A stretch of 64,000 bases of DNA from contig JBAYIY010000002.1 of the NCBI GenBank assembly GCA_041665365.1, forward strand, positions 66,178-130,177, read 5' to 3'. Made by a program: the position numbers and the translations under genes. This DNA is from Patescibacteria group bacterium. GTDB taxonomy: Bacteria; Patescibacteriota; Patescibacteriia; UBA9570. Below the pieces are notes generated by a model. The model was not told the origin of the DNA and did no database searches. It saw only the letters and a list, made by a program, of their open reading frames with translations. Below are positions 2,396 to 54,476 of the stretch, piece after piece; the first letter of the stretch is position 1, and every line of letters begins with the position of its first letter.

Positions 2396-3952
2396 TTAGT
2401 TGGGCTGTAGTGCTTGTAAAAAACTCCGCGCTGCTGGAGACGTTTCCGCTTTGCGTAATTGAGAGGTAATACGGGCCTTCGTTTTATGACCACTTCCTAG
2501 TAAGGTTCTGGCTTGTTGACCTAAGCCCGCAGCTAATTTTGCTTGAACCACCCAAGCTTCTTCTCGATAATAAGCTAAATTAATTGGCTCAAGGTTTGCC
2601 GTTTCCAATAGTTTCTCAGCCTTTTTCAGGTATACCTGAACATCGCGCACCAAAATGTCTGGATGTGAGTTACTACTAAAGGACAGCTCGGCTAACTGTT
2701 TAGCAGTCGCAAGCTCCAGTGCTATGATATCATCGGTTTGAAATGTTTTTGGGTTTGTCTGCATTATATGTTCAGCAGCATCTACCACTCCACCAAAATT
2801 TGGGTTGGCACCATGTTTAGCTAAACTATCACCTAATCGTATTAAAAAATTAACCTGTTTATAGGGATTGGCAACAGTTTCATGTATTAACTTTTTTACC
2901 CCTAGTGCGATCGGCTCTTTAAAATGAGCGACTAGCGCTGTTCGTTCGCTAGCTGAATGTGGGCGCTCAACATATTGTAATGCTACTTCTCCATTAATAT
3001 CATCCTGATCAGTCTGAAAGTTTACTTCATTGTAGCGTCGCCCTGCACCCACTGCTCGTACGATCTTTGTGCTTAGTAATTGCAACATGGCTTGCGTATT
3101 GGGAATATCTCCTAAACGCGCTGCGGCTAGACCAGCTGCCTTGATGAAATCTGGACTATCTTCTTCTGGCGATCCCGATAACAACTCAGTTGCTTCAGAT
3201 ATACGTCCAATTTTTACTAACCCTTCAATCAACGACTCACGATCTGAAAAATCGGTTTGATACTCGGCCATCACGATATCATCAACCACACAACCATGCT
3301 CACTTAGTAGTAAAGCACTAGACAATAATTTTTCACGATGTTTGCTAGGATCGGCGTAGTATTTGTTAATTAAACGTTCCACTGTGGCACGATCCCCTTG
3401 CCTGGCATAGTAATCAATGATTGAATTGGCTTTATCAATTCGACTAGATTCCGGTAACGTATCAATCATCGTTTCAGCCCGAGCGAGCAATGCCAGATCC
3501 GATTTCTTTTCAGCAACTCGACAGAGCATATCAATTTGAATAGTGGGATCAGTGATAACTTGTAATGTCTGCTCAGCCGAAACAGTATCACCAGCCAAAT
3601 ACTGCCAAGCACCAATATCCATCAACTCCCAATCTCGATCATTTGCCCTATCATGACGCTGTGGAATGGTAATGCGATCATCCGTAGTAACTCTCTGTTT
3701 AATTTCCGCCAGCAATTTGGATACAGCAATAGCAATACCACCTTTATGTAGCTGATACGCCAAACGAGCGAGCGCAGCAGTATCACCAGAAGTGTGTGCA
3801 CCTTCTTCAGCGTTAGACAAAAAAACAGCCGCTTGTTCCGCAAGTCTGGCAGCTTCAATAATTTCTTGATTTTCTCTATCCAAGATCTCTGCACGCGGTA
3901 TTTCACGCCTTGTCATGTTCAAAATTCTATCAAAAAAAATGACTTTTGTCAA
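2396..3952 (-). CDS. Hypothetical alpha-helical repeat protein. The track uses a TTG start at 3952; an ATG at 3916 is possible.
   Basis: 518-aa ORF, convergent with the previous gene. Helical-repeat composition, no recognisable catalytic motif. Confidence 0.5.
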   Translation of the reverse strand: MTKVIFFDRILNMTRREIPRAEILDRENQEIIEAARLAEQAAVFLSNAEEGAHTSGDTAALARLAYQLHKGGIAIAVSKLLAEIKQRVTTDDRITIPQRHDRANDRDWELMDIGAWQYLAGDTVSAEQTLQVITDPTIQIDMLCRVAEKKSDLALLARAETMIDTLPESSRIDKANSIIDYYARQGDRATVERLINKYYADPSKHREKLLSSALLLSEHGCVVDDIVMAEYQTDFSDRESLIEGLVKIGRISEATELLSGSPEEDSPDFIKAAGLAAARLGDIPNTQAMLQLLSTKIVRAVGAGRRYNEVNFQTDQDDINGEVALQYVERPHSASERTALVAHFKEPIALGVKKLIHETVANPYKQVNFLIRLGDSLAKHGANPNFGGVVDAAEHIMQTNPKTFQTDDIIALELATAKQLAELSFSSNSHPDILVRDVQVYLKKAEKLLETANLEPINLAYYREEAWVVQAKLAAGLGQQARTLLGSGHKTKARITSQLRKAETSPAARSFLQALQPN

Positions 3953-4397: not shown

Positions 4398-5573
4398 ATG
4401 TATACACGAACCATAGAAAAACGCTTCTTGGCCAGCGTCAAAACCTTTCCCGTGGTTATTCTGACCGGTGCACGACAAACGGGTAAAAGCACCTTGTGCA
4501 AAACCCTGTTGCATGACACCCATCGCTATGTATCATTGGAAGATCCAGACATTCGTCGCCAGGCTATCGAAGACCCCCGGACATTTTTACAAAATTTTCC
4601 TGCTCCAGTGATTCTGGATGAAATTCAGTATGCTCCAGATCTGCCCAGTTATATTCAAGGCATTGTTGACGAACATCGTACCAAATATGGACAATACATT
4701 TTGACTGGTTCACAAAATTTCTTACTAATGGAACGTGTCGCCCAATCCTTAGCCGGACGTGCAGCTCTCTTAACGCTTTATCCTTGTGCTGTCCAAGAAG
4801 TAGATGGCTCAACTGCTAAACCACGCTCATCAACTACGGCTGTAGCGGATTGGATATTGCGTGGTGGATATCCAGAACTGCGCAATCGCCCAGAACTAGA
4901 TCGGGCCACTTGGTGTTCAAGTTATATTAGACTCTATCTTGAACGTGATGTGCGCCAGTTGATTAATGTCACTGATTTAACGACCTTCGAAAGATTCGTC
5001 CATCATGTGGCGATTCGCACTGGGCAGATCTTAAATACCAGTGATCTAGCGCGTGATGTTGATGTCAGCGTACCAACGATTACGCGGTGGTTATCGGTGT
5101 TACAAGCCAGCTACCAAGTGTTTTTATTGGAACCCTATCACGCGAGTATTTCTAAACGCTTAGTTAAGGCTCCGAAAATCTATTTTGGCGACACTGCTTT
5201 AGCCTCATATTTGATGGGAATTCATGATCCTGAAGTTTTACTACAAGGGCCATTTCTTGGACATTTATTTGAAACCGCTGTTGTGCTAGAACATCTTAAA
5301 TGGGCTAGCATGAACGGTTTAAATTCAACCTTCTCCTACTTTCGCACCAAAGATGGAATTGAAGTTGATCTATTCATTGAACAAGGTGTAGAGATCATGG
5401 CTCGCGAAATAAAATCTTCCCGCACCCGCACCACTTTTACTACAAAAAATTTAATCCTAGCCGAAGAATTACTACAGCGCCCACTACACAAATCCATTCT
5501 AGCCCCCGTGTCGGAACCATCGATCATGAAGAGTGGCGTCACTGTGAAACCCTGGCATCAGGTAGAGTGGTAA
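4398..5573 (+). CDS. AAA+ ATPase of the DUF4143 family (COG1373-like)
   Basis: 391 aa with a Walker A motif (ILTGARQTGKSTL). The C-terminal DUF4143-like region resembles the widespread predicted-ATPase family. Confidence 0.7.
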   Translation: MYTRTIEKRFLASVKTFPVVILTGARQTGKSTLCKTLLHDTHRYVSLEDPDIRRQAIEDPRTFLQNFPAPVILDEIQYAPDLPSYIQGIVDEHRTKYGQYILTGSQNFLLMERVAQSLAGRAALLTLYPCAVQEVDGSTAKPRSSTTAVADWILRGGYPELRNRPELDRATWCSSYIRLYLERDVRQLINVTDLTTFERFVHHVAIRTGQILNTSDLARDVDVSVPTITRWLSVLQASYQVFLLEPYHASISKRLVKAPKIYFGDTALASYLMGIHDPEVLLQGPFLGHLFETAVVLEHLKWASMNGLNSTFSYFRTKDGIEVDLFIEQGVEIMAREIKSSRTRTTFTTKNLILAEELLQRPLHKSILAPVSEPSIMKSGVTVKPWHQVEW

Positions 5574-5578
5574 AATCT

Positions 5579-6589
5579 TTACAATTTTTTCCCTGCGGCT
5601 ATGGCCATATCGACCAAACGATTGGCGTAACCGAACTCGTTATCGTACCAACTGACTACTTTAACGAGGCTGCCACCTACCACCATGGTGAGAGCTAAAT
5701 CAACAATCGAAGATTCACTGCGACCAACTATATCAGATGACACGATCGGCTCATTAGTCACAGCTAAGATACCTTTAAAATCTTGTTTTTGGGAAGCCTC
5801 TGTTAAAGCCTGATTCACCTCTTCAACTGTGACATCTTTTTTTAATAACAGAGTGATGTCTGATAATGATCCAGCGGGAGTTGGCACGCGCACAGCGAAA
5901 CCATCAAACTTGCCTTGATACACAGGCATGGTCTTACCTACTGCTCGAGCGGCTCCGGTGGAAGTTGGAATGATATTCAAGGCTGCCCCTCGAGCGCGAC
6001 GTAGGTCACTCTTGTGTGTCCCATCTACTAAATTTTGATCAGCGGTGTAAGAATGAATGGTTGTCATCATCGCCTTCTCAACACCAAAAGATTCCATCAT
6101 CACTTTCATCACTGGAGCGATACAATTTGTGGTGCAAGAGGCATTGGACGAGATGGTATCTTTACCGATATCAGCTTGGTTAACAGACATCACATAAGTA
6201 CCAATGTCTTTATCTTTAGCTGGCGCAGACATTATGACGTGCTTGGCACCGGCGGTTAAGTGCTGACTGGCTAACTCCCGGGTTAAAAATACTCCGGTAC
6301 ATTCGAGTACAATATCAGCACCCACTTTACCCCAAGGAATTTGCTTCGGATCCTTTTCCGAAAAACGGCGATATTTCTTGCCATCAACCACTAAATAATC
6401 TTCTCCGTCGGTGGTGACAGTTTTATCATATGGGCCATAGACACTGTCATATTTTAATAAATGGGCGGCCATGGTAAGACTACCTAGGCCATTTATAGCG
6501 ACGACTTCGAGGTCTGGGCGGGTAAGGGCGATGCGGAAGGCCGCAGCACCGATTCGACCAAAACCATTGATTGCAATACGTGTTTTCAT
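5579..6589 (-). CDS. gap: Glyceraldehyde-3-phosphate dehydrogenase
   Basis: MKTRIAINGFGRIGAAAFR...SCTTNCIAPV... contains the NAD-binding and catalytic Cys motifs. Confidence 0.9.
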   Translation of the reverse strand: MKTRIAINGFGRIGAAAFRIALTRPDLEVVAINGLGSLTMAAHLLKYDSVYGPYDKTVTTDGEDYLVVDGKKYRRFSEKDPKQIPWGKVGADIVLECTGVFLTRELASQHLTAGAKHVIMSAPAKDKDIGTYVMSVNQADIGKDTISSNASCTTNCIAPVMKVMMESFGVEKAMMTTIHSYTADQNLVDGTHKSDLRRARGAALNIIPTSTGAARAVGKTMPVYQGKFDGFAVRVPTPAGSLSDITLLLKKDVTVEEVNQALTEASQKQDFKGILAVTNEPIVSSDIVGRSESSIVDLALTMVVGGSLVKVVSWYDNEFGYANRLVDMAIAAGKKL

Positions 6590-6626
6590 AGGGATTAATG
6601 TATCACATTATGATTAAATATGCCAA

Positions 6627-7376
6627 CTAGTTTTGTGTACCAAAACGAGTATTATTATTGGCCGCTTGTGTATTTATAGTATGTTGAGAATCTGCATTAG
6701 TATCTTCATCAGGAGTAGTATCATCTTTTATCTCTTCTAATGTTTTTGGGCTCCCATCTTGGTTTAATCTTTCCTGATAAATAAACATGACGCGAAAACC
6801 GACCTGTTTATTCTCGAGCACAAACCCATAATTATTTTCATGGACCACATCAAAGGCACCGTTTTGTTGCTTCATCGAACTGAGTAGTTCTTTACCCTTA
6901 CCAGCGGCGACAACAAAATTAGCATCACCTTTTTGATCTAAACGGCTGACGGTTTTACCGCCAATGGTTTCTGGTTTAATTGCAGCAATCGTGTCGCGAC
7001 AATTTTCTAACGCATCATAAATATCTTCGGCCAGTTTATGAATTAGTCGTTTTAATTCAGTATCTGGGGCGGCCTCATCTGGAGTTGTTTCATTAGCAAC
7101 AGTTACTTCAACCCCTAATGATTTTTGTAATTCACCTAACGCTTGCTCTCGGCCTGCCGAATCTTTATTCTTAAAATTACGTTCTATCACTTTATAAATA
7201 TCCCATACACTATTAAATCTCACCGGATCTATTTCAACTTGTTCACCAGTTGAAACTTCAGCTACATGAGCAGTTTCTCCTAATGATATAGCTCCTTTAC
7301 CTTCTTGTCTTTGTTTTAATCTTTTCTCAAATTCTGTTTCCGCTCCTTTAGTTGGAAATTGAACAACTTTTCCCAT
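6627..7376 (-). CDS. Hypothetical protein
   Basis: 249-aa ORF with no recognisable motif. The C-terminus is acidic and Thr-rich. Confidence 0.5.
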   Translation of the reverse strand: MGKVVQFPTKGAETEFEKRLKQRQEGKGAISLGETAHVAEVSTGEQVEIDPVRFNSVWDIYKVIERNFKNKDSAGREQALGELQKSLGVEVTVANETTPDEAAPDTELKRLIHKLAEDIYDALENCRDTIAAIKPETIGGKTVSRLDQKGDANFVVAAGKGKELLSSMKQQNGAFDVVHENNYGFVLENKQVGFRVMFIYQERLNQDGSPKTLEEIKDDTTPDEDTNADSQHTINTQAANNNTRFGTQN

Positions 7377-16944: not shown

Positions 16945-17053
16945 TAGTGGGCTTGCCCACCGCAGTCCACCGTCGCCGAAGGCTGTGGCGGACGAAGGTG
17001 GGACGTGCTGGACCATCCTCCGCTACACTGCGGTTGGTAAATTTGAACCAGCG
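16945..17053 (-). repeat. Partial duplicate of the tRNA-Lys 3' portion plus its 52-nt hairpin trailer (distal copy B), carrying a 28-nt insertion in the T-loop
   Basis: 16945-17012 matches 17326-17393 at 67 of 68 positions. After a 28-nt insert (17013-17040), 17041-17053 (ATTTGAACCAGCG) matches the tRNA-Lys T-arm (17393-17405). Confidence 0.8.
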
Positions 17054-17325: not shown

Positions 17326-17393
17326 TAGTGGGCTTGCCCACCGCAGTCCACCGTCGCCGAAGGCTGTGGTGGACGAAGGTGGGACGTGCTGGA
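17326..17393 (-). repeat. Proximal copy A: tRNA-Lys 3' acceptor/T-stem plus the 52-nt structured trailer
   Basis: Direct repeat of 16945-17012. The trailer has a 7-bp stem GTCCACC/GGTGGAC enclosing a TTCG tetraloop hairpin, followed by GTGGG-CAAG-CCCAC. Confidence 0.8.
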
Positions 17394-17451
17394 TTTGAAC
17401 CAGCGACCATTTGCTTAAAAGGCAATTGCTCTACCCCTGAGCTAACGTCCC
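17380..17451 (-). tRNA. tRNA-Lys (anticodon TTT)
   Basis: Sense strand GGGACGTTAGCTCAGGGGTAGAGCAATTGCCTTTTAAGCAAATGGTCGCTGGTTCAAATCCAGCACGTCCCA is near-identical in architecture to E. coli tRNA-Lys(UUU). The anticodon loop is CTTTTAA. Confidence 0.85.
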
Positions 17452-35341: not shown

Positions 35342-35365
35342 TGCCAACCGTGTGGATAAGTTGTT

Positions 35366-35406
35366 AATTACGTAGAGACGTGCCGCCGGCACGTCTCTAC
35401 GTAATT
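35366..35406. repeat. Palindromic element P1 of the GTAGAGACGT family, between the fusA stop and the tuf promoter
   Basis: AATTACGTAGAGACGTGCCG-c-CGGCACGTCTCTACGTAATT, 20-bp perfect arms. It is not followed by a U-run. Confidence 0.8.
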
Positions 35407-37575: not shown

Positions 37576-37666
37576 GTGAAAATAATTTTATCTAATAATT
37601 TACAGAGTCATACCTTACCAAATGCTTATTAAAATGTAAAGATATTACATAAAACTGTCAAAACAT

Positions 37667-37708
37667 AAAACAAGTAGAGACATGCCATGGCATGTCTCTA
37701 CTTGTTTT
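37667..37708. terminator. Palindromic element P2, which acts as the terminator of the DYNY-repeat gene. A further half-copy lies at 37713-37724.
   Basis: AAAACAAGTAGAGACATGCC-ATGG-CATGTCTCTACTTGTTTT, with T-runs on both strands. Confidence 0.75.
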
Positions 37709-37744
37709 TAATGCGTCTCTACAGTTGTATTAATGCAAAAAAAA

Positions 37745-41414: not shown

Positions 41415-42548
41415 TCAATTTTGCACATCAAAAATTAATTTTGGATAATCGCGCATGCGTTGTTCCATGAGTTCGGGTGTATATTCAGAAAATTTAATGA
41501 CCGTATCTTTACCACCATTGAGAATTATATTCCAAATTTTATCTTGGACACCGTTAGACTTGTCAGATAACACACTATCAATCGTTTGCCAGGTTTTGAA
41601 AATCTGTCGACCAATCACACAATGCAACGTTAAACCCTTCATGATCATGCCGGAAAATTTGTTGATCGTAAAATCGCCGTCTTTGATACCGAATAAAATC
41701 ACCTCTCCGCCAAACCGGGTAGTGGCGATGCAATTATTCACCGATGAGTTAAAACCAGCCATTTCCATAGTGATATCAGCCCCTCGACCAGCGGTGAGTT
41801 TCAACACCTCAGCACAAGCCTGACTATCCCCTTTTGGCTGAATTAACACTGTCTGGTGAGCGCCTAATTGTTTAGCAATATCCAGATTATGTTGGTTGGT
41901 ATCAACTCCAATTACTTGGCTAGCTCCAAACTGACGCGCCAATAAAATGGCAAACATACCAATTTGCCCACAGCCATAAATGACCACCTGTTTACCGCGC
42001 ACATCTACCTTACTTAAACTGTGTACGGCATTACCAAATGGATCACAAATCGCAGCAATTTCCGGACGTAATTTTGTCAGATCAATCGGCCACAGATTTT
42101 TGGCAGGTAAGTTTACTTGTTCGGCAAAAATACCATCGGTGCTGATACCTAAAATGGCTTGATCCTGACATACTTCCGCTTCACCTAACTTGCACTGATA
42201 ACAGTTTCCACAGGTAACATGTGAATCACCTGACACTGTATCTCCAACCTTAATACCATATAATTTTTCTACTTGCTCGCCCGCTGCTGTGACCTCACCG
42301 ACAAACTCGTGTCCTAAAATACGCAACGTTTTATGCTGTTTGTCTAGTGAATTGGCAAATACTTCAGAAAAAGCGACGCGATTCCAAATGCCACGATCTG
42401 ACCCACAGACACCGGCATATTTAACTTTTACCAGCACATGGGTAGCTTCGGTTAATGTCGGCACCGCAATTGGCCGTTTGATGAAGCCTTTTGATGTACT
42501 CCAACCGTCTTGTTTAAGATCTAATGTGAGAGCTTGAATATTAGTCAT
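41415..42548 (-). CDS. tdh: L-threonine 3-dehydrogenase (Zn-dependent MDR family)
   Basis: GHEFVGEV, GDSHVTCGNCYQCKLG and the Rossmann motif GCGQIG. It is in an operon-like pair with kbl. Confidence 0.8.
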   Translation of the reverse strand: MTNIQALTLDLKQDGWSTSKGFIKRPIAVPTLTEATHVLVKVKYAGVCGSDRGIWNRVAFSEVFANSLDKQHKTLRILGHEFVGEVTAAGEQVEKLYGIKVGDTVSGDSHVTCGNCYQCKLGEAEVCQDQAILGISTDGIFAEQVNLPAKNLWPIDLTKLRPEIAAICDPFGNAVHSLSKVDVRGKQVVIYGCGQIGMFAILLARQFGASQVIGVDTNQHNLDIAKQLGAHQTVLIQPKGDSQACAEVLKLTAGRGADITMEMAGFNSSVNNCIATTRFGGEVILFGIKDGDFTINKFSGMIMKGLTLHCVIGRQIFKTWQTIDSVLSDKSNGVQDKIWNIILNGGKDTVIKFSEYTPELMEQRMRDYPKLIFDVQN

Positions 42549-43623
42549 GCACCAGAGTATACAACAACTCTACATTTTTCGCGAGATCAGATATTTTGAT
42601 ATATTCATCTACGGTATGTAAATTACAGCCGCCTGTACCAATATTTACAGCTTTAATCCCATGTTTAATAAACGTATTGGCATCCGTTGAACCAACACAA
42701 GCCACTAAATTTGGTACAATATTCAAATCGGTCATGACACTCATGACATGTTTGAGTAATAGATCAGATTTTTTTAACTTATACCCATCCACCGCCACAT
42801 TACTGCATAATTCCAGTAATCCACCATATGTTTCACAAGCATCTTGCAAGGTTTTACTCATGTGCTCAATTTGATCTTCTATTTTCCGTTTGGAAAAACT
42901 GCGCGCCTCACCATGCAGAAAAACTTCAGCTGGAATAGAATTACGAATACTACCACCAGTAATGATACCAATATTAGCTGTAGTTGTTTGATCAATTCGT
43001 CCTAGTTTCATATGGTGAATGGCTGTAGCCGCAATTTTAATCGCACTGATGCCCTTTTCCGGATCAACCCCTGAATGAGCCGCTTTACCACGAATGTTGA
43101 CCCGAATATCGGCTAAATATGCCGAATGGTAATCTAGCTCACCAACGCCGCCTCCATCTATCACATAAGCGACCGGTGCATGAATCTGACTAAAATCCAA
43201 CGCCGCCGCTCCTTCAGAAAAAGTTTCTTCACTGGTGGTAAAAATAATCTCCAAGGGTGGATGTTTTACACCACGTTCTTTTAAAAGCGTGATGGCTTCA
43301 ATAATTTCAGCAATCCCCGCTTTATCATCAGCGCCCAATACGGAGGTACCATCGGTTTGAATCACATCACCCCGCACGACCGGCCGGATGCGCTGGCATG
43401 GCTGAACAGTATCCATATGCGCATTTAACAACAACGGCACCCCTTTACCCGGCAGATATCCAATTAGGTTTCCGGCTTTATCCACTTTGGTTTTTACACC
43501 CAGGGCGGTTAAATCTTTTTTGATCACCCGACTCAAAGCCGCCTCGTGGTGTGATGGGCTAGATATTTTGACATATTTTAAAAATGTTTTTACGAGACGG
43601 GTCATGTTGGTATGATAACACAA
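42541..43623 (-). CDS. Peptidase M20 family, peptidase T-like (tripeptidase)
   Basis: LNAHMDTV and the metal-ligand pattern of M20/PepT. The start may be MTRLVKT at 43605. Confidence 0.7.
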   Translation of the reverse strand: MCYHTNMTRLVKTFLKYVKISSPSHHEAALSRVIKKDLTALGVKTKVDKAGNLIGYLPGKGVPLLLNAHMDTVQPCQRIRPVVRGDVIQTDGTSVLGADDKAGIAEIIEAITLLKERGVKHPPLEIIFTTSEETFSEGAAALDFSQIHAPVAYVIDGGGVGELDYHSAYLADIRVNIRGKAAHSGVDPEKGISAIKIAATAIHHMKLGRIDQTTTANIGIITGGSIRNSIPAEVFLHGEARSFSKRKIEDQIEHMSKTLQDACETYGGLLELCSNVAVDGYKLKKSDLLLKHVMSVMTDLNIVPNLVACVGSTDANTFIKHGIKAVNIGTGGCNLHTVDEYIKISDLAKNVELLYTLVHD

Positions 43624-43658
43624 AATTTATATTGATGATTTTATTGTTTAATAATTTC

Positions 43659-43683
43659 AAAAAAAATAACCCCTCTCATGGGG
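43659..43683 (-). terminator. Rho-independent terminator for the high-GC minus-strand cassette
   Basis: Minus strand CCCCATGAGAGGGG followed by TTATTTTTTTTG. It is preceded by an 8-bp-stem hairpin at 43692-43730. Confidence 0.5.
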
Positions 43684-43737
43684 TAGGTTGGCCAGGGAGG
43701 AGTGCGTCGTGCTGCACTTCAACTCCCTGGCTTGGGA

Positions 43738-44052
43738 TCAGCAACCCATGCTGGGCTGCTGACTTCCCCGCTTCGGCGGTGGCGGGGGTGGCGACCCGAT
43801 GTCGAAATCATCGACCTCGGCGTCGTCGTATCCATCAGTGTCGTCATCGACGGGGTTGCCGTCGATGTCGGTGTCGTCATCACCGTCCATTGGATGGGAC
43901 GGTCGACGCGGCGGAGCAGTGAACTCCACCGCATCATCGTCCACCCGTGGGGGCGGCAGCCGGGGAGGCGACTCCTCCGGCTTTTTCGGTTCTGTTTTTT
44001 TGGGAGCTTCGGGGAGAACGTCCCCGATCTCCCACGAGCCGTTGTAGCACAT
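43738..44052 (-). CDS. Small acidic Pro/Asp-rich protein of unknown function, in the high-GC islet
   Basis: 104 aa: ...PPRVDDDAVEFTAPPRRPSHPMDGDDDTDIDGNPVDDDTDGYDDAEVDDFDIGSPPPPPPKRG. Codons are GC3-rich. Its ATG is 3 nt after the upstream ORF stop. Confidence 0.45.
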   Translation of the reverse strand: MCYNGSWEIGDVLPEAPKKTEPKKPEESPPRLPPPRVDDDAVEFTAPPRRPSHPMDGDDDTDIDGNPVDDDTDGYDDAEVDDFDIGSPPPPPPKRGSQQPSMGC

Positions 44053-44055
44053 CGG

Positions 44056-44232
44056 TCACCTCTCCTTTTCTTCGAATTTTTCGTTCATCTTCCGGAACGT
44101 TTCGGCATGTACCGGGTGATAGCCCGACACGTACTGACCGTTCGCGGTTTTGAAGTAGAAGGGCACGTTCGTACCCTTTTCACACAGGGCCGTAACCCCG
44201 TTTTTGGTTACTTGTTCCAACATTTCGTCCAC
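44056..44232 (-). CDS. Small ORF (55-58 aa) of unknown function in the high-GC islet; below the 60-aa track threshold
   Basis: (V)DEMLEQVTKNGVTALCEKGTNVPFYFKTANGQYVSGYHPVHAETFRKMNEKFEEKER. GGAGA lies 9 nt before the GTG at 44232; there is an ATG at 44223. Confidence 0.4.
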   Translation of the reverse strand: MDEMLEQVTKNGVTALCEKGTNVPFYFKTANGQYVSGYHPVHAETFRKMNEKFEEKER

Positions 44233-44379
44233 GATGTTGTCTCCAGAACACAGGAATCTGAATGACCCCTCTCCTTGATGTCACAAATCTTGTGGTAGCA
44301 AGGAAAAAAGTCAGTAGAAATGGTTGGTCGGCGGAGCGTATCACGTGCTCAACACCGACCAGTTTTTTTTGGGGGCGAC

Positions 44380-44553
44380 TCAGTCACCCCCGTAACCCGT
44401 GCCGATCCAGCGCGGATCGGTGTCGACCGGCTCGGTGGCCGGTTTCGGCGGGGAACGACGACGCTGCGGCGGCTGGGGTGGCGGGTTCCACCCTCCGTCG
44501 TGAGAATTATCAGGGATCGGGCGACGACGAGGTTCACGTTCTTCGGTCGGCAT
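44380..44553 (-). CDS. Small Pro/Arg-rich ORF (57 aa) in the high-GC islet; below the track threshold
   Basis: MPTEEREPRRRPIPDNSHDGGWNPPPQPPQRRRSPPKPATEPVDTDPRWIGTGYGGD. A GGAGAG ribosome-binding site lies just upstream. Codons are GC3-rich. Confidence 0.4.
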   Translation of the reverse strand: MPTEEREPRRRPIPDNSHDGGWNPPPQPPQRRRSPPKPATEPVDTDPRWIGTGYGGD

Positions 44554-44599
44554 GGTCTCTCCTGGGACACAGAGATCTCCATGATCTCTTTCCCTGACA

Positions 44600-45235
44600 A
44601 CACAACAAAATTATTGATTGGTGTGTTTTCAGTGAAAGAGGTTGGATGAGAGTTTTTTAAAGAAACCCTCTAAAACTTTGCCCCTTTTGGGGGCGCTCTC
44701 GCGTCACGGGACACCTCCTGGGATCAGATGATCCCGGTTGTCCAAACCGCAGGCTAGCGGCAGGAGCTGGCTACTGACTTTTATTCACATCTCCGGTTAC
44801 ACCTCCCTAGCCCTCCTATTGTAGGAGGGAATAAGAACAACCTATCTTACTCCCTTCCTAGAATAGGAAGGGTTGGGGAAGGTGTACACAGAAATGATTT
44901 AAGTTCAGCACTCAGCTCCCGGCTAATACAGCGGCCGGAACATATCTACGTTATCCTTTACTGATTGTCAATGAACCATTGAAATATCTACTAAAAATCC
45001 CGCTGGGTAAGCGGGTTAGACATTTCTGGATTCAACCTAGATTTCCTCTGCATCTAGTTGTATGTCTGTACCCGCTGACTTGGTGTAATAGTAGAACGAC
45101 GCACAATGAGTGTGAGAGATTTTACTGTTAATTTCCAAGTTTGCGTGTACAGCATACTTGGCGACCAGACTACACAATGATTAAAATTTTGTAAAGTATT
45201 ATTGTACGTAGTTATCCACAGACGGTGAAATTAAA
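44600..45235. other. About 640 bp of non-coding sequence of intermediate GC content, with several stable hairpins. It may be a structured RNA or the leader of the high-GC cassette.
   Basis: No ORF of 60 aa or more. Hairpins include CCCTCCTAttgTAGGAGGG, CCCTTCCTAgaaTAGGAAGGG (both enclosed by ACACCTCC/GGAAGGTGT), GGGATCAGATGATCCCGG and CCCGCTGGGTAAGCGGG. Confidence 0.35.
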
Positions 45236-45278
45236 CCGGTAGAGACGTGCCGGCGGCACGTCTCTACCGGTTTAATTT
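45228..45278. repeat. Palindromic element P3 (GTAGAGACGT family), overlapping the trpG-like stop. It is terminator-like.
   Basis: AAATTAAACCGGTAGAGACGTGCCGGCGGCACGTCTCTACCGGTTTAATTT followed by TTTTTT. It is the reverse-orientation twin of P1. Confidence 0.8.
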
Positions 45279-45844
45279 TTTTGTTCAAGAACATTACGTA
45301 TCATTTTTAGACCGTAATGCGGGTTAGTTAATATAGATTCAGGATGAAACTGTACACCTGTGATGGATAAACTTTTATGGCTAATACCCATCACAATATT
45401 ATCTTTAGTTTTAGCGGTGACAACAAAACAATCTGGTACATAATCAGCGGCTAAAGAATGATAGCGACCGACCAATAATGTTTTTGGTAAACCCTGAAAT
45501 ATACCTGAACCATCATGGGTAATAACAGAACCTCGCCCATGCACTGGCTTGGGTAACACTTGTAAGCTGCCACCAAAAGCTTCAAGCATGGCTTGCATGC
45601 CTAAACACACACCAAATTGCGGAATGACTCCGGAAAACTTTTTTATGTAAGTTAGTAGCTTCCCCGCTTGAGCTGGGTTACCCGGGCCAGGTGAATAGAC
45701 TAATAAATCTGGTTTTAGTTTTTTAATAACACTGACCGGAGTAGTATTATTTTTCACAATCACTTTTGCTCGACATTGGCGCAAATAGGCTACCAAGTTA
45801 TACGTAAAAGAATCGTGATTATCAATCAACCCGATGGTTTTCAT
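45272..45844 (-). CDS. Glutamine amidotransferase class I (anthranilate / aminodeoxychorismate synthase component II-like)
   Basis: GVCLGMQAM (catalytic Cys) plus the His/Glu region (QFHPES). Confidence 0.75.
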   Translation of the reverse strand: MKTIGLIDNHDSFTYNLVAYLRQCRAKVIVKNNTTPVSVIKKLKPDLLVYSPGPGNPAQAGKLLTYIKKFSGVIPQFGVCLGMQAMLEAFGGSLQVLPKPVHGRGSVITHDGSGIFQGLPKTLLVGRYHSLAADYVPDCFVVTAKTKDNIVMGISHKSLSITGVQFHPESILTNPHYGLKMIRNVLEQKN

Positions 45845-48394: not shown

Positions 48395-51181
<2,787 letters not shown>

Positions 51182-53647: not shown

Positions 53648-53684
53648 GAGGAGATTATACCACATAAAATCATTAGGGAGGCGA

Positions 53685-53726
53685 AAAACCAGTAGAGACA
53701 TGCCATGGCATGTCTCTACTGGTTTT
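53685..53726. terminator. Palindromic element P5, acting as the terminator after major pilin gene pilA-1
   Basis: AAAACCAGTAGAGACATGCC-ATGG-CATGTCTCTACTGGTTTT with T-runs on both sides. It is almost identical to P2. Confidence 0.75.
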
Positions 53727-53743
53727 ATTAATATTTGGATTTC

Positions 53744-54447: not shown

Positions 54448-54476
54448 ACAGAGACGCCCCACCGGGACGTCTCTGT
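54448..54476. terminator. Palindromic element P6 (GAGACG variant), the terminator after pilA-2
   Basis: ACAGAGACGCCCCACCGGGACGTCTCTGT followed on the minus strand by GTTGGTTTTTG. Confidence 0.7.

Follow-up and report, generated by a model that had tools for sequence, protein, structure and literature searches.

The region described here (positions 44600-45235 of the window, the 64-kb stretch of a Patescibacteria metagenome-assembled genome (MAG) that was analysed as a whole) separates trpG from a GC-rich cassette of three small open reading frames (ORFs), o57, o58 and o104, and carries a structured leader RNA that is a candidate transcription attenuator; all of its functional signals lie on the minus strand (Table 1). 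The locus is not an assembly chimera, because two independent assemblies carry it, Logan SRR6484324 at 100% identity and JGI 3300037810 at 99.7%. The ribosomal protein S12 cluster at 90% identity takes in Candidatus Kerfeldbacteria, which points to a related lineage. A preliminary description had called the region free of ORFs and intermediate in GC content, and both points hold: on neither strand is an ORF longer than 50 aa found from the stop codon of trpG to the start of o57 (ATG at 44553), and GC content is 0.39-0.57 in 100-nt windows, compared with 0.65-0.74 in the adjacent islet. The region is the largest gene-free gap of the window. None of nine short ORF fragments of the region matches Pfam at E<=1, and the NCBI protein accessions of trpG and of the M20 peptidase gene beyond the cassette are consecutive, which implies that the Prokaryotic Genome Annotation Pipeline (PGAP) annotated no protein between them.

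Syntenic loci of relatives were retrieved through S12 and M20 homologues (L163, L164 (~L165), L171 (~L167), L172 and L175), and the leader was compared in five independent sequences: the window, L163, L164, L171 and L175. Contigs reached through P0045, P0047 and P0202 were left out of the comparison, being too short upstream. Scans of genome and metagenome contigs with trpG as probe yielded nothing nearer than 50% identity, and o58 as probe matches itself only.

A conserved, covarying leader RNA

The sequence, architecture and position of the leader are conserved in five independent genomes, its helices covary, and it contains a 33-codon ORF that is kept without amino-acid conservation; the core (45195-44993) is clearly under selection. 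A gene-poor gap of 0.85-1.76 kb lies upstream of the M20 gene, or of a fusion gene that includes it, in every relative, and the minus strand from 45228 to 44988 aligns with the start of this gap in L163, L164 and L165 (65-68% identity, blastn E 2e-19 to 2e-16); the leader region was also aligned in L171 and in L175 (nhmmer 1e-19). The alignment runs in order through the TGTGGATAA box, the promoter, an invariant CAAGUAUG, a variable middle, an invariant GCGGGUACAGGCAUACAACUA, a variable hairpin and the terminator. The predicted -10 hexamer ends 11 nt ahead of the invariant AUG of the ORF, and the geometry of the promoter is common to all five sequences, with a spacing of 16-17 nt and -10 versions TATTGT, TAGTCT, TATTCT and TATCTT (TAnTnT); the tuf promoter of the same window reads TTTACA-17-TATAAT. 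The element is assigned to the minus strand because of this promoter, the U-run of the terminator and a fixed orientation toward the cassette.

Separate minimum free energy (MFE) folds of the five sequences give one P1-P4 architecture (z = -2.3 to -5.1): P1; P2, a long variable stem with CUCA in its apical loop; an invariant CAACUA linker; the variable hairpin P3; and the terminator P4. Among unpaired nucleotides, conservation is limited to the CUCA motif and the CAACUA linker. P3 is built from CUAGAU/AUCUAG, AGUUACA/UGUAACU, GUUAC/GUAAC or GUGUG/CACAC according to lineage, and in L175 it is a copy of that genome's GTAGAGAC palindrome. The terminator (ACCCGCY..RGCGGG followed by a U-run) is present in all five sequences with one covarying pair, U-A in the window and L171 and C-G in L163, L164 and L175. 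A covariance model (R1) with a seed of four lineages finds exactly one match per locus, scoring 152 bits at 45177-44985 of the window, and recovers L175, which was outside the seed (46.5 bits, E=3e-8). In the model alignment 85.9% of cells are paired, compared with 27-46% when partners are slid by 1-3 columns. The comparative alignment that the preliminary description had proposed thus reveals covariation, with ten pairs of the core changed on both sides compared with 4.9+-1.5 in shuffles, none of 500 of which reaches ten. No sequence like that of the multibranch hairpins at 44799-44885, on which that description had laid its emphasis, is found in relatives; what is conserved and covaries is the minus-strand stretch 45177-44985, in an AT-rich part to which the description had not referred.

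The preliminary description had recognised no tmRNA, RNase P, SRP or T-box signature by eye, and the Rfam scans, which also cover 6S RNA, riboswitches and amino-acid leaders, show that no known RNA family accounts for the element: none reaches its gathering score in the region, and an Rfam 15 gathering scan of the whole window returned two tRNAs only, both elsewhere. Scans at E<=10 (44200-45400, 44940-45230 and L163:2130-2420) gave microRNA-type noise and a Trp_leader match of 16-18 bits (threshold 41 bits) that comes from the terminator hairpin only, and no Rfam family matched in the loci of the five relatives.

The ORF, with its AUG at 45155 and its stop at 45054-45056, is open at 32-33 codons in all five sequences, a coincidence reached in ~0.2% of trials when alignment columns are shuffled with relatedness and composition kept (P ~0.002). 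Protein-coding selection was looked for in the five sequences through dN/dS and codon periodicity, and none was seen: pairwise dN/dS is ~0.5-1.5 (about 1), a value to be expected of a leader peptide, and variable columns number 24, 20 and 22 of 32 at the three codon positions. The C-terminus of the peptide, R(V/N)Q(A/T)Y(N/Q), is conserved, and the absence of synonymous change in its codons points to a constraint at the RNA level; the 16-nt block GCGGGUACAGGCAUAC would be held invariant by its dual pairing duty. Threonine is the commonest residue in codons 2-17 (20 of 80), with ACN triplets numbering 20, 9 and 3 in frames 0, 1 and 2. The peptide has no match in NCBIfam or Pfam. The ORF has no Shine-Dalgarno (SD) sequence, which is normal here because native genes of the lineage almost never carry the SD core (4 of 70 genes in the window, 0 of 22 in L163, 2 of 12 in L175, 0 of 11 in L171 and 0 of 10 in L164). 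Like the leader ORF, several operon-first genes are preceded by a -10-like hexamer at a distance of 6-11 nt from the start codon, and judging from these sequences short or absent 5' leaders look common in this lineage.

A second pairing competes with the terminator. When the 5' half of the leader is withheld, the MFE structure pairs GCGGGU and CAGRCAU with (A)UGUCUG and ACCCGC in all five sequences; the first two motifs are the 3' strand of P2/P1, and the second two lie just before, and include, the 5' arm of the terminator. Numbering the segments 1 to 4 from the 5' end, the predicted MFE structure of the five sequences is 1:2 plus 3:4 at full length and 2:3 with the 5' half withheld, and the 2:3 pairing survives addition of the 3' arm of the terminator in L164, L171 and L175. 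In these models, the 1:2, 2:3 and 3:4 topology of a classical attenuator is present.

The downstream untranslated region and the small-protein cassette

Conservation extends past the terminator into a 5' untranslated region (UTR) that measures 150-240 nt in relatives and 440 nt in the window (44985-44553), longer in the window mainly because a variable stem has grown to ~160 nt (44920-44763). Its modules are collinear with those of relatives: a GGUAACGUA box, a GGCC hairpin, the variable stem, a small hairpin, a CUCUUUC hairpin and an SD sequence. Hairpins of the CUCUUUC type also precede small ORFs in L164, L171 and L172. In relatives, a GGUAACGUAAGC box pairs with GCUUACGUUACC located 3' of the first small ORF, forming a 12-13-bp long-range helix that encloses this ORF and shows three compensatory variants (AAGC/GCUU, AUGG/CCAU and AAGG/CCUU). 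A search of the window for a 3' partner of its own GGAUAACGUA box found none, leaving a degenerate 5' strand only; a perfect 12-nt complementarity of 44771-44782 with 44306-44317 also brackets o57.

The two related hairpins to which the preliminary description had drawn attention are present (CCCTCCTAttgTAGGAGGG at 44811-44829 and CCCTTCCTAgaaTAGGAAGGG at 44852-44872), and the chance expectation of a match to the first with at most three mismatches in the window is 0.00. The proposed closing helix (44799-44807 with 44875-44885) also exists; the MFE structure, instead of the three-way junction that had been drawn, joins the two palindromes to one another in a single long hairpin, and the sequence is compatible with both folds. 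Together the hairpins and closing helix form the apex of the long stem. No sequence match to 44640-44918 was found in relatives by blastn, and by comparison with their UTRs the flagged hairpins are an expansion, specific to this lineage, of a stem that is fixed in position and variable in length and sequence, probably serving as a stability or spacer structure rather than as the conserved functional core. Compared with dinucleotide shuffles, folding is strong at 44795-44890 (z = -5.9 on the minus and -9.05 on the plus strand), at 44551-44992 on the minus strand (z = -10.35) and at 44600-45275 (z = -14.7 and -15.3 on the two strands), part of the last being due to the inclusion of the 25-bp perfect palindrome of the trpG terminator (45228-45278). 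Hairpins of the CCCTCTCC..GGAGAGGG type occur 13 times in ~125 kb of relatives' loci (L163-L172), often at gene ends, and twice in 1.85 Mb of unrelated loci. The flagged hairpins can be likened to REP-like or terminator palindromes, since CCCTCCTA..TAGGAGGG hairpins of the polypyrimidine/polypurine class are common in related genomes and often at gene ends, but they differ in not being followed by U-runs, in not being repeated within the window and in being nested in the stem of a 5'UTR.

The cassette that follows belongs to the same conserved locus. The gaps of relatives hold GC-rich islets (0.62-0.74) in genomes of 45-48% GC, and the small ORFs of these islets fall into three families shared with o57, o58 and o104. 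The tail of o57 (WIGTGYGGD*) recurs in L163 (MDWVGTGYGGD*), where six of nine codons including the stop differ at synonymous third positions only, a coding signature. On this comparative evidence the high-GC islet (43650-44600) is an ancestral small-protein cassette left empty by PGAP, not horizontally acquired junk; recent horizontal transfer was rejected, since the same position is occupied in every relative by GC-rich islets that hold homologous ORFs. Unlike native genes, every one of these small ORFs (o57, o58, o104 and homologues) has a strong GGAGG-type site; the cassette is odd in both composition and translation signals.

The genes upstream of the leader differ: gatCA-response regulator-ndk-trpG in the window and aroC-PDT-PDH/CM (prephenate dehydrogenase/chorismate mutase) in relatives, which indicates that the leader element travels with the downstream cassette. 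The ndk-trpG order also occurs in a Parachlamydiaceae MAG and is misleading as a taxonomic sign. L163, L164, L171 and L172 encode an 827-884-aa fusion protein in which a PGM1/BesA-like ATP-grasp ligase is followed by the M20 homologue as C-terminal half, whereas the M20 gene of the window (42541-43605) aligns to fusion residues ~506-860 only, at 66% identity, beginning exactly at 43608. M20 is unfused in the window and in L175, and in L176 an asparagine-synthase-like gene stands before it. With both its upstream genes and the ATP-grasp half differing from relatives, the region lies at a synteny breakpoint. The preliminary description had allowed for a degraded pseudogene, and one of the 505-aa ATP-grasp half was rejected: tblastn of the 863-884-aa fusion proteins against the window finds the M20 gene only and no remnant in 43609-45271, and the ORF fragments match nothing in Pfam. 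The ATP-grasp-PepT-like fusion is rare, with few clusters among 1.84 billion representatives. In all lineages a -10-like TATACT (TATCAT in the window) stands exactly 6 nt upstream of the ATG with which the M20 or ATP-grasp-M20 gene begins, a position that implies a leaderless mRNA with a putative promoter of its own.

Table 1. Coordinates of features at the leader locus and in the loci of relatives
Feature	Position	Strand	Description
trpG (GATase)	45272-45844; stop 45272-45274	minus	Upstream neighbour of the region
trpG terminator palindrome	45228-45278	minus	25-bp perfect arms; upper limit of the leader region, starting from the trpG stop
DnaA-box-like TGTGGATAA	45212-45220	minus	Identical to consensus TTATCCACA on the other strand; kept upstream of the promoter in five lineages
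Putative promoter	45167-45195	minus	-35 TTTACA (45195-45190), 17-nt spacer, -10 TAGTCT (45172-45167)
Structured leader RNA, ~165 nt	44993-45160	minus	P1/P2, CAACUA linker, P3, P4 terminator
P1	45157-45147 with 45071-45060	minus	GUAUGCUGUAC paired with GUACAGACAUAC; from MFE folds
Candidate leader-peptide ORF, 33 codons	45054-45155	minus	MLYTQTWKLTVKSLTLIVRRSTITPSQRVQTYN; invariant AUG inside P1 to invariant stop in CAACUAG
P3	45057-45037	minus	Variable hairpin, different in every lineage
Antiterminator alternative	45011-45076	minus	AGCGGGUAC and AGACAU (45076-45060) with AUGUCUAACCCGC (45023-45011), enclosing P3
Intrinsic terminator P4	44993-45015	minus	CCCGCU-UACCC-AGCGGG, then AUUUUU
Post-terminator box GGAUAACGUA	44956-44947	minus	Degenerate copy of the GGUAACGUA box of relatives
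Hairpin CCGGCC..GCCGG	44938-44919	minus	Compensatory variants in relatives
Long imperfect stem	44763-44920	minus	GGGAGCUGAGUGCUGAAC (44920-44903) pairs with GUCAGUAGCCAGCUCC (44778-44763)
Three local 5'UTR hairpins	44761-44746; 44735-44720; 44694-44680	minus	GCCGC..GCGGU; GGGAUC..GAUCCC; GCCCCC..GGGGC
Hairpin CUCUUUC.CUG...CAGGGAAAGAG	44586-44640	minus	CUCUUUC..GAAAGAG; directly upstream of o57; z = -4.8
o57, 57 aa	44380-44563; ATG 44553	minus	First gene after the leader; span includes AGGAGA Shine-Dalgarno; ends ...DPRWIGTGYGGD
o58	44056-44232	minus	NGVT..HP..F family
o104	43738-44052	minus	Cassette member
Cassette terminator	43684-43669	minus	Downstream end of the cassette (rest of cassette 43669-44232)
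M20 -10-like sites	window 43606-43625; L163 ~3040-3060; L164 ~2265-2285; L171 ~5980-6000; L172 ~1655-1677; L175 ~6980-7000		
Long-range helix arms	L163 ~2415/2945; L164 ~891/1476; L171 ~4508/5057; L172 67/555; L175 ~5878/6300		
ATP-grasp-M20 fusions and loci compared	L163:2995-5649; L164:2285-4876; L171:6001-8484; L172:1678-4254; L176:808-4001		
Palindrome copies	window 35366-35406, 37665-37709, 45228-45278, 48756-48797, 53684-53728, 54448-54476; L175 ~5695-5730, ~6345-6375		
Elements of relatives only	L171 ~5170-5295, 5620-5730; L172 ~1100-1275, 1290-1400; L175 ~6380-6515, 6520-6625		

A putative attenuator and its rivals

The region had been offered as a candidate noncoding RNA or long leader; the long leader is favoured, one that contains a conserved RNA element as a discrete part. 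Our preferred reading, to which we give a probability of roughly one half, is that the region is a cis-acting transcription attenuator operated by a ribosome on the leader ORF and followed by a structured 5'UTR for o57, possibly also serving o58 and o104. From the predicted signals we infer that transcription would start a few nucleotides before the invariant AUG, making 45195-44553 (minus) one control region. In one fold, segments 1 and 2 would form the long P1/P2 hairpin, segments 3 and 4 would form the terminator, and transcription would stop at ~44993. In the alternative fold, segment 1 would be masked, segment 2 (GCGGGUAC-AGRCAU) would pair with segment 3 (AUGUCU-ACCCGC), the terminator would be blocked, and polymerase would continue through the 440-nt hairpin-rich 5'UTR into SD-led o57 and possibly o58 and o104. 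The masking agent would most likely be a ribosome that translates, and pauses on, the 33-codon ORF, which ends just after segment 2, and the amino acid sensed would most plausibly be threonine.

Such a mechanism resembles that of the thr, trp, his, leu and ilv leaders of Proteobacteria (RF00506 Thr_leader, RF00513 Trp_leader), with which the leader shares a short promoter-proximal ORF, segments pairing as 1:2, 2:3 and 3:4 and an intrinsic terminator with a U-run ahead of genes, as well as a peptide unconstrained apart from its codon content, the sensing half here being rich in Thr, Leu, Val and Ile. It differs from them in having no sequence or covariance-model similarity (best 18 bits against a gathering score of 41 bits, from the terminator hairpin only), in an ORF that is longer, spans segments 1 and 2, lacks an SD sequence and is nearly leaderless, in the lack of a tandem codon run in four of five sequences, and in being followed by small proteins rather than a biosynthetic operon. 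We know of no leader-peptide attenuator described in Patescibacteria.

Several observations weigh against attenuation by a ribosome. A tandem run of one codon is found in L175 only (TTT) and is missing from the other four sequences, and the sensing half has a single Thr codon in L164 and L165. The predicted transcript start would give the ORF a 5'UTR of 4-5 nt. P1/P2 is very stable (the whole leader has an MFE of -50 to -61 kcal/mol), and the terminator should consequently always form without an active agent, which fits a stand-alone small RNA (sRNA) too. The most conserved helices (P1, terminator and antiterminator) are nearly invariant and hence show little covariation, the five independent sequences represent one narrow clade, and counts of G-U and A-C pairs favour neither strand. 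The genes next to the leader encode orphan small proteins and not an amino-acid biosynthetic operon. Further downstream, NCBIfam scores a PepT-like gene (the M20 gene) at 296 bits, above its cutoff of 274, a Tdh-like gene at 257 bits, below its cutoff of 380, and Kbl at 545 bits, above its cutoff of 460; a physiological link of the leader to threonine is speculative, because PepT-like has its own -10-like element 6 nt before its ATG and Tdh-like and Kbl lie past it.

Unlikely, but the best placed of the alternatives, is that the same attenuator responds to a metabolite, as a riboswitch, or to an RNA-binding protein or another RNA acting on P1/P2, the 33-codon ORF being incidental. This would fit the conservation of three mutually exclusive helices, the retention of the CUCA apical loop, the invariance of the CAACUA linker, the lack of amino-acid conservation in the peptide and the lack of tandem regulatory codons in four of five sequences. 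Like riboswitches that act through a terminator and antiterminator, the leader has a 5' domain whose 3' strand switches to the 5' arm of the terminator, and a conserved position in cis; unlike them, it has no recognisable aptamer or Rfam family, and its sensor is a long regular hairpin holding a conserved ORF. The rod-like P1/P2, with few conserved unpaired nucleotides, is unlike aptamers, and an incidental ORF would be expected neither to be open in all five sequences (P ~0.002) nor to have its AUG and stop in invariant blocks and its Thr codons confined largely to one frame.

Somewhat less credible still is a stand-alone sRNA of ~165 nt that would have a promoter and terminator to itself and work in trans or by binding a protein, with the 440 nt beyond it a separate, unrelated UTR or spacer. 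The predicted promoter and terminator are both conserved, each locus has one copy, the stability of P1/P2 would make termination the default, and the invariant single-stranded CAACUA could be a seed. Yet the element keeps a strict cis linkage and orientation to the cassette despite the changed upstream gene, conservation runs beyond the terminator, and the 2:3 alternative that overlaps the terminator is itself conserved. A consensus scan finds no promoter-like site between the terminator and o57 from which a separate UTR might be transcribed, but the same scan also misses the leader promoter. A 6S-like or SRP-like RNA was rejected, as the 5' and 3' ends are unpaired and no model matches.

That the DNA, chiefly 44600-44985, is non-functional, a scar left by rearrangement or an accumulation of palindromic mini-elements where the ATP-grasp half was lost, is improbable. 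The synteny breakpoint, the absence of the 505-aa half, the stretch unmatched in relatives (44640-44918), the polypyrimidine/polypurine hairpins scattered in their loci and the equally strong folding of both strands, as DNA palindromes would give, could all be accommodated; on the other side stand the collinearity of the 44985-44553 modules with the 5'UTRs of relatives, selection on the core, the lack of any ATP-grasp coding remnant and the lack of a phage, plasmid or viral match. A phage, plasmid or viral origin was rejected, blastn giving no match in phages or plasmids and the leader pattern being absent from viral contigs. Nor do the data favour a mobile element such as a miniature inverted-repeat transposable element (MITE) or a repetitive extragenic palindromic (REP) sequence, the hairpins being unique within the 64 kb of this genome that were examined. 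Least probable of all is that the ORF encodes a functional micro-protein, for example a substrate or precursor peptide for the ATP-grasp ligase or PepT-like enzyme, with the RNA structure secondary: the ORF and its R(V/N)Q(A/T)Y(N/Q) terminus are conserved and the relatives' locus holds an amino-acid/peptide ligase fused to a peptidase, but dN/dS is ~1, the three codon positions vary equally, the C-terminal codons are invariant at synonymous sites, no Pfam or NCBIfam family matches, and the window genome lacks the ATP-grasp half.

If the attenuator reading is correct, an SD-less, nearly leaderless attenuator would show that transcription control coupled to translation operates in tiny, SD-poor genomes. 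To our knowledge, gene regulation has hardly been explored in the candidate phyla radiation (CPR), from which few cis-regulatory RNAs have been described. The 165-nt element is experimentally tractable and offers clear mutational predictions. More tentatively, the leader could be the founding member of an undescribed class of cis-regulatory RNA in Kerfeldbacteria-like Patescibacteria, gating an aberrant cassette (65-74% GC in genomes of 42-48% GC) as part of a self-contained regulatory or peptide-producing unit of 1.5-1.7 kb. Comprising the attenuator, a structured mRNA and three small-protein families, and tied to an amino-acid/peptide ligase-peptidase, such a unit would have no described counterpart, a suggestion that we hold just as tentatively.

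Palindromes and other repeats around the leader

The palindrome that forms the trpG terminator belongs to a GTAGAGACRTGCC..GGCAYGTCTCTAC family repeated at six gene ends in the window. Members of the family GTAGAGAC(G/A)TGCC..GGCA(C/T)GTCTCTAC stand at gene ends in the manner of REP elements that also act as bidirectional terminators, and the family is shared with L175, where one copy replaces the leader hairpin P3. The consensus of the DnaA box, found upstream of the leader promoter, also occurs at 35351-35359 (plus), where its neighbours are the tuf promoter and a palindrome; as 22 of 100 shuffles contain as many, its two copies in 64 kb are within chance expectation.

A GC-rich direct repeat of 68 nt (99% identity) is found at 16945-17012 and 17326-17393, the second copy overlapping the 3' end of a tRNA (17380-17451, minus), and looks like att sites left by integration or a duplication of the tRNA end. 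An imperfect 24-nt direct repeat (ATCAATA..TTTTGTGTTRTCA, minus) at 43613-43636 and 44595-44618 lies upstream of the M20 start and of the o57 hairpin, bracketing the cassette, and may mark an old junction or stem from the duplication of a promoter segment. Two further elements, absent from the window and not in Rfam, occur in L171, L172 and L175: another AT-rich unit, with a strong terminator (CCCUACC..GGUAGGGUUUUUU) at its end, and a conserved element of ~110 nt (AAUCAGCUCAAGGAGC...GCUGAUU.UAGUGAGCUCGCGUUUCA) upstream of a family-B small ORF.

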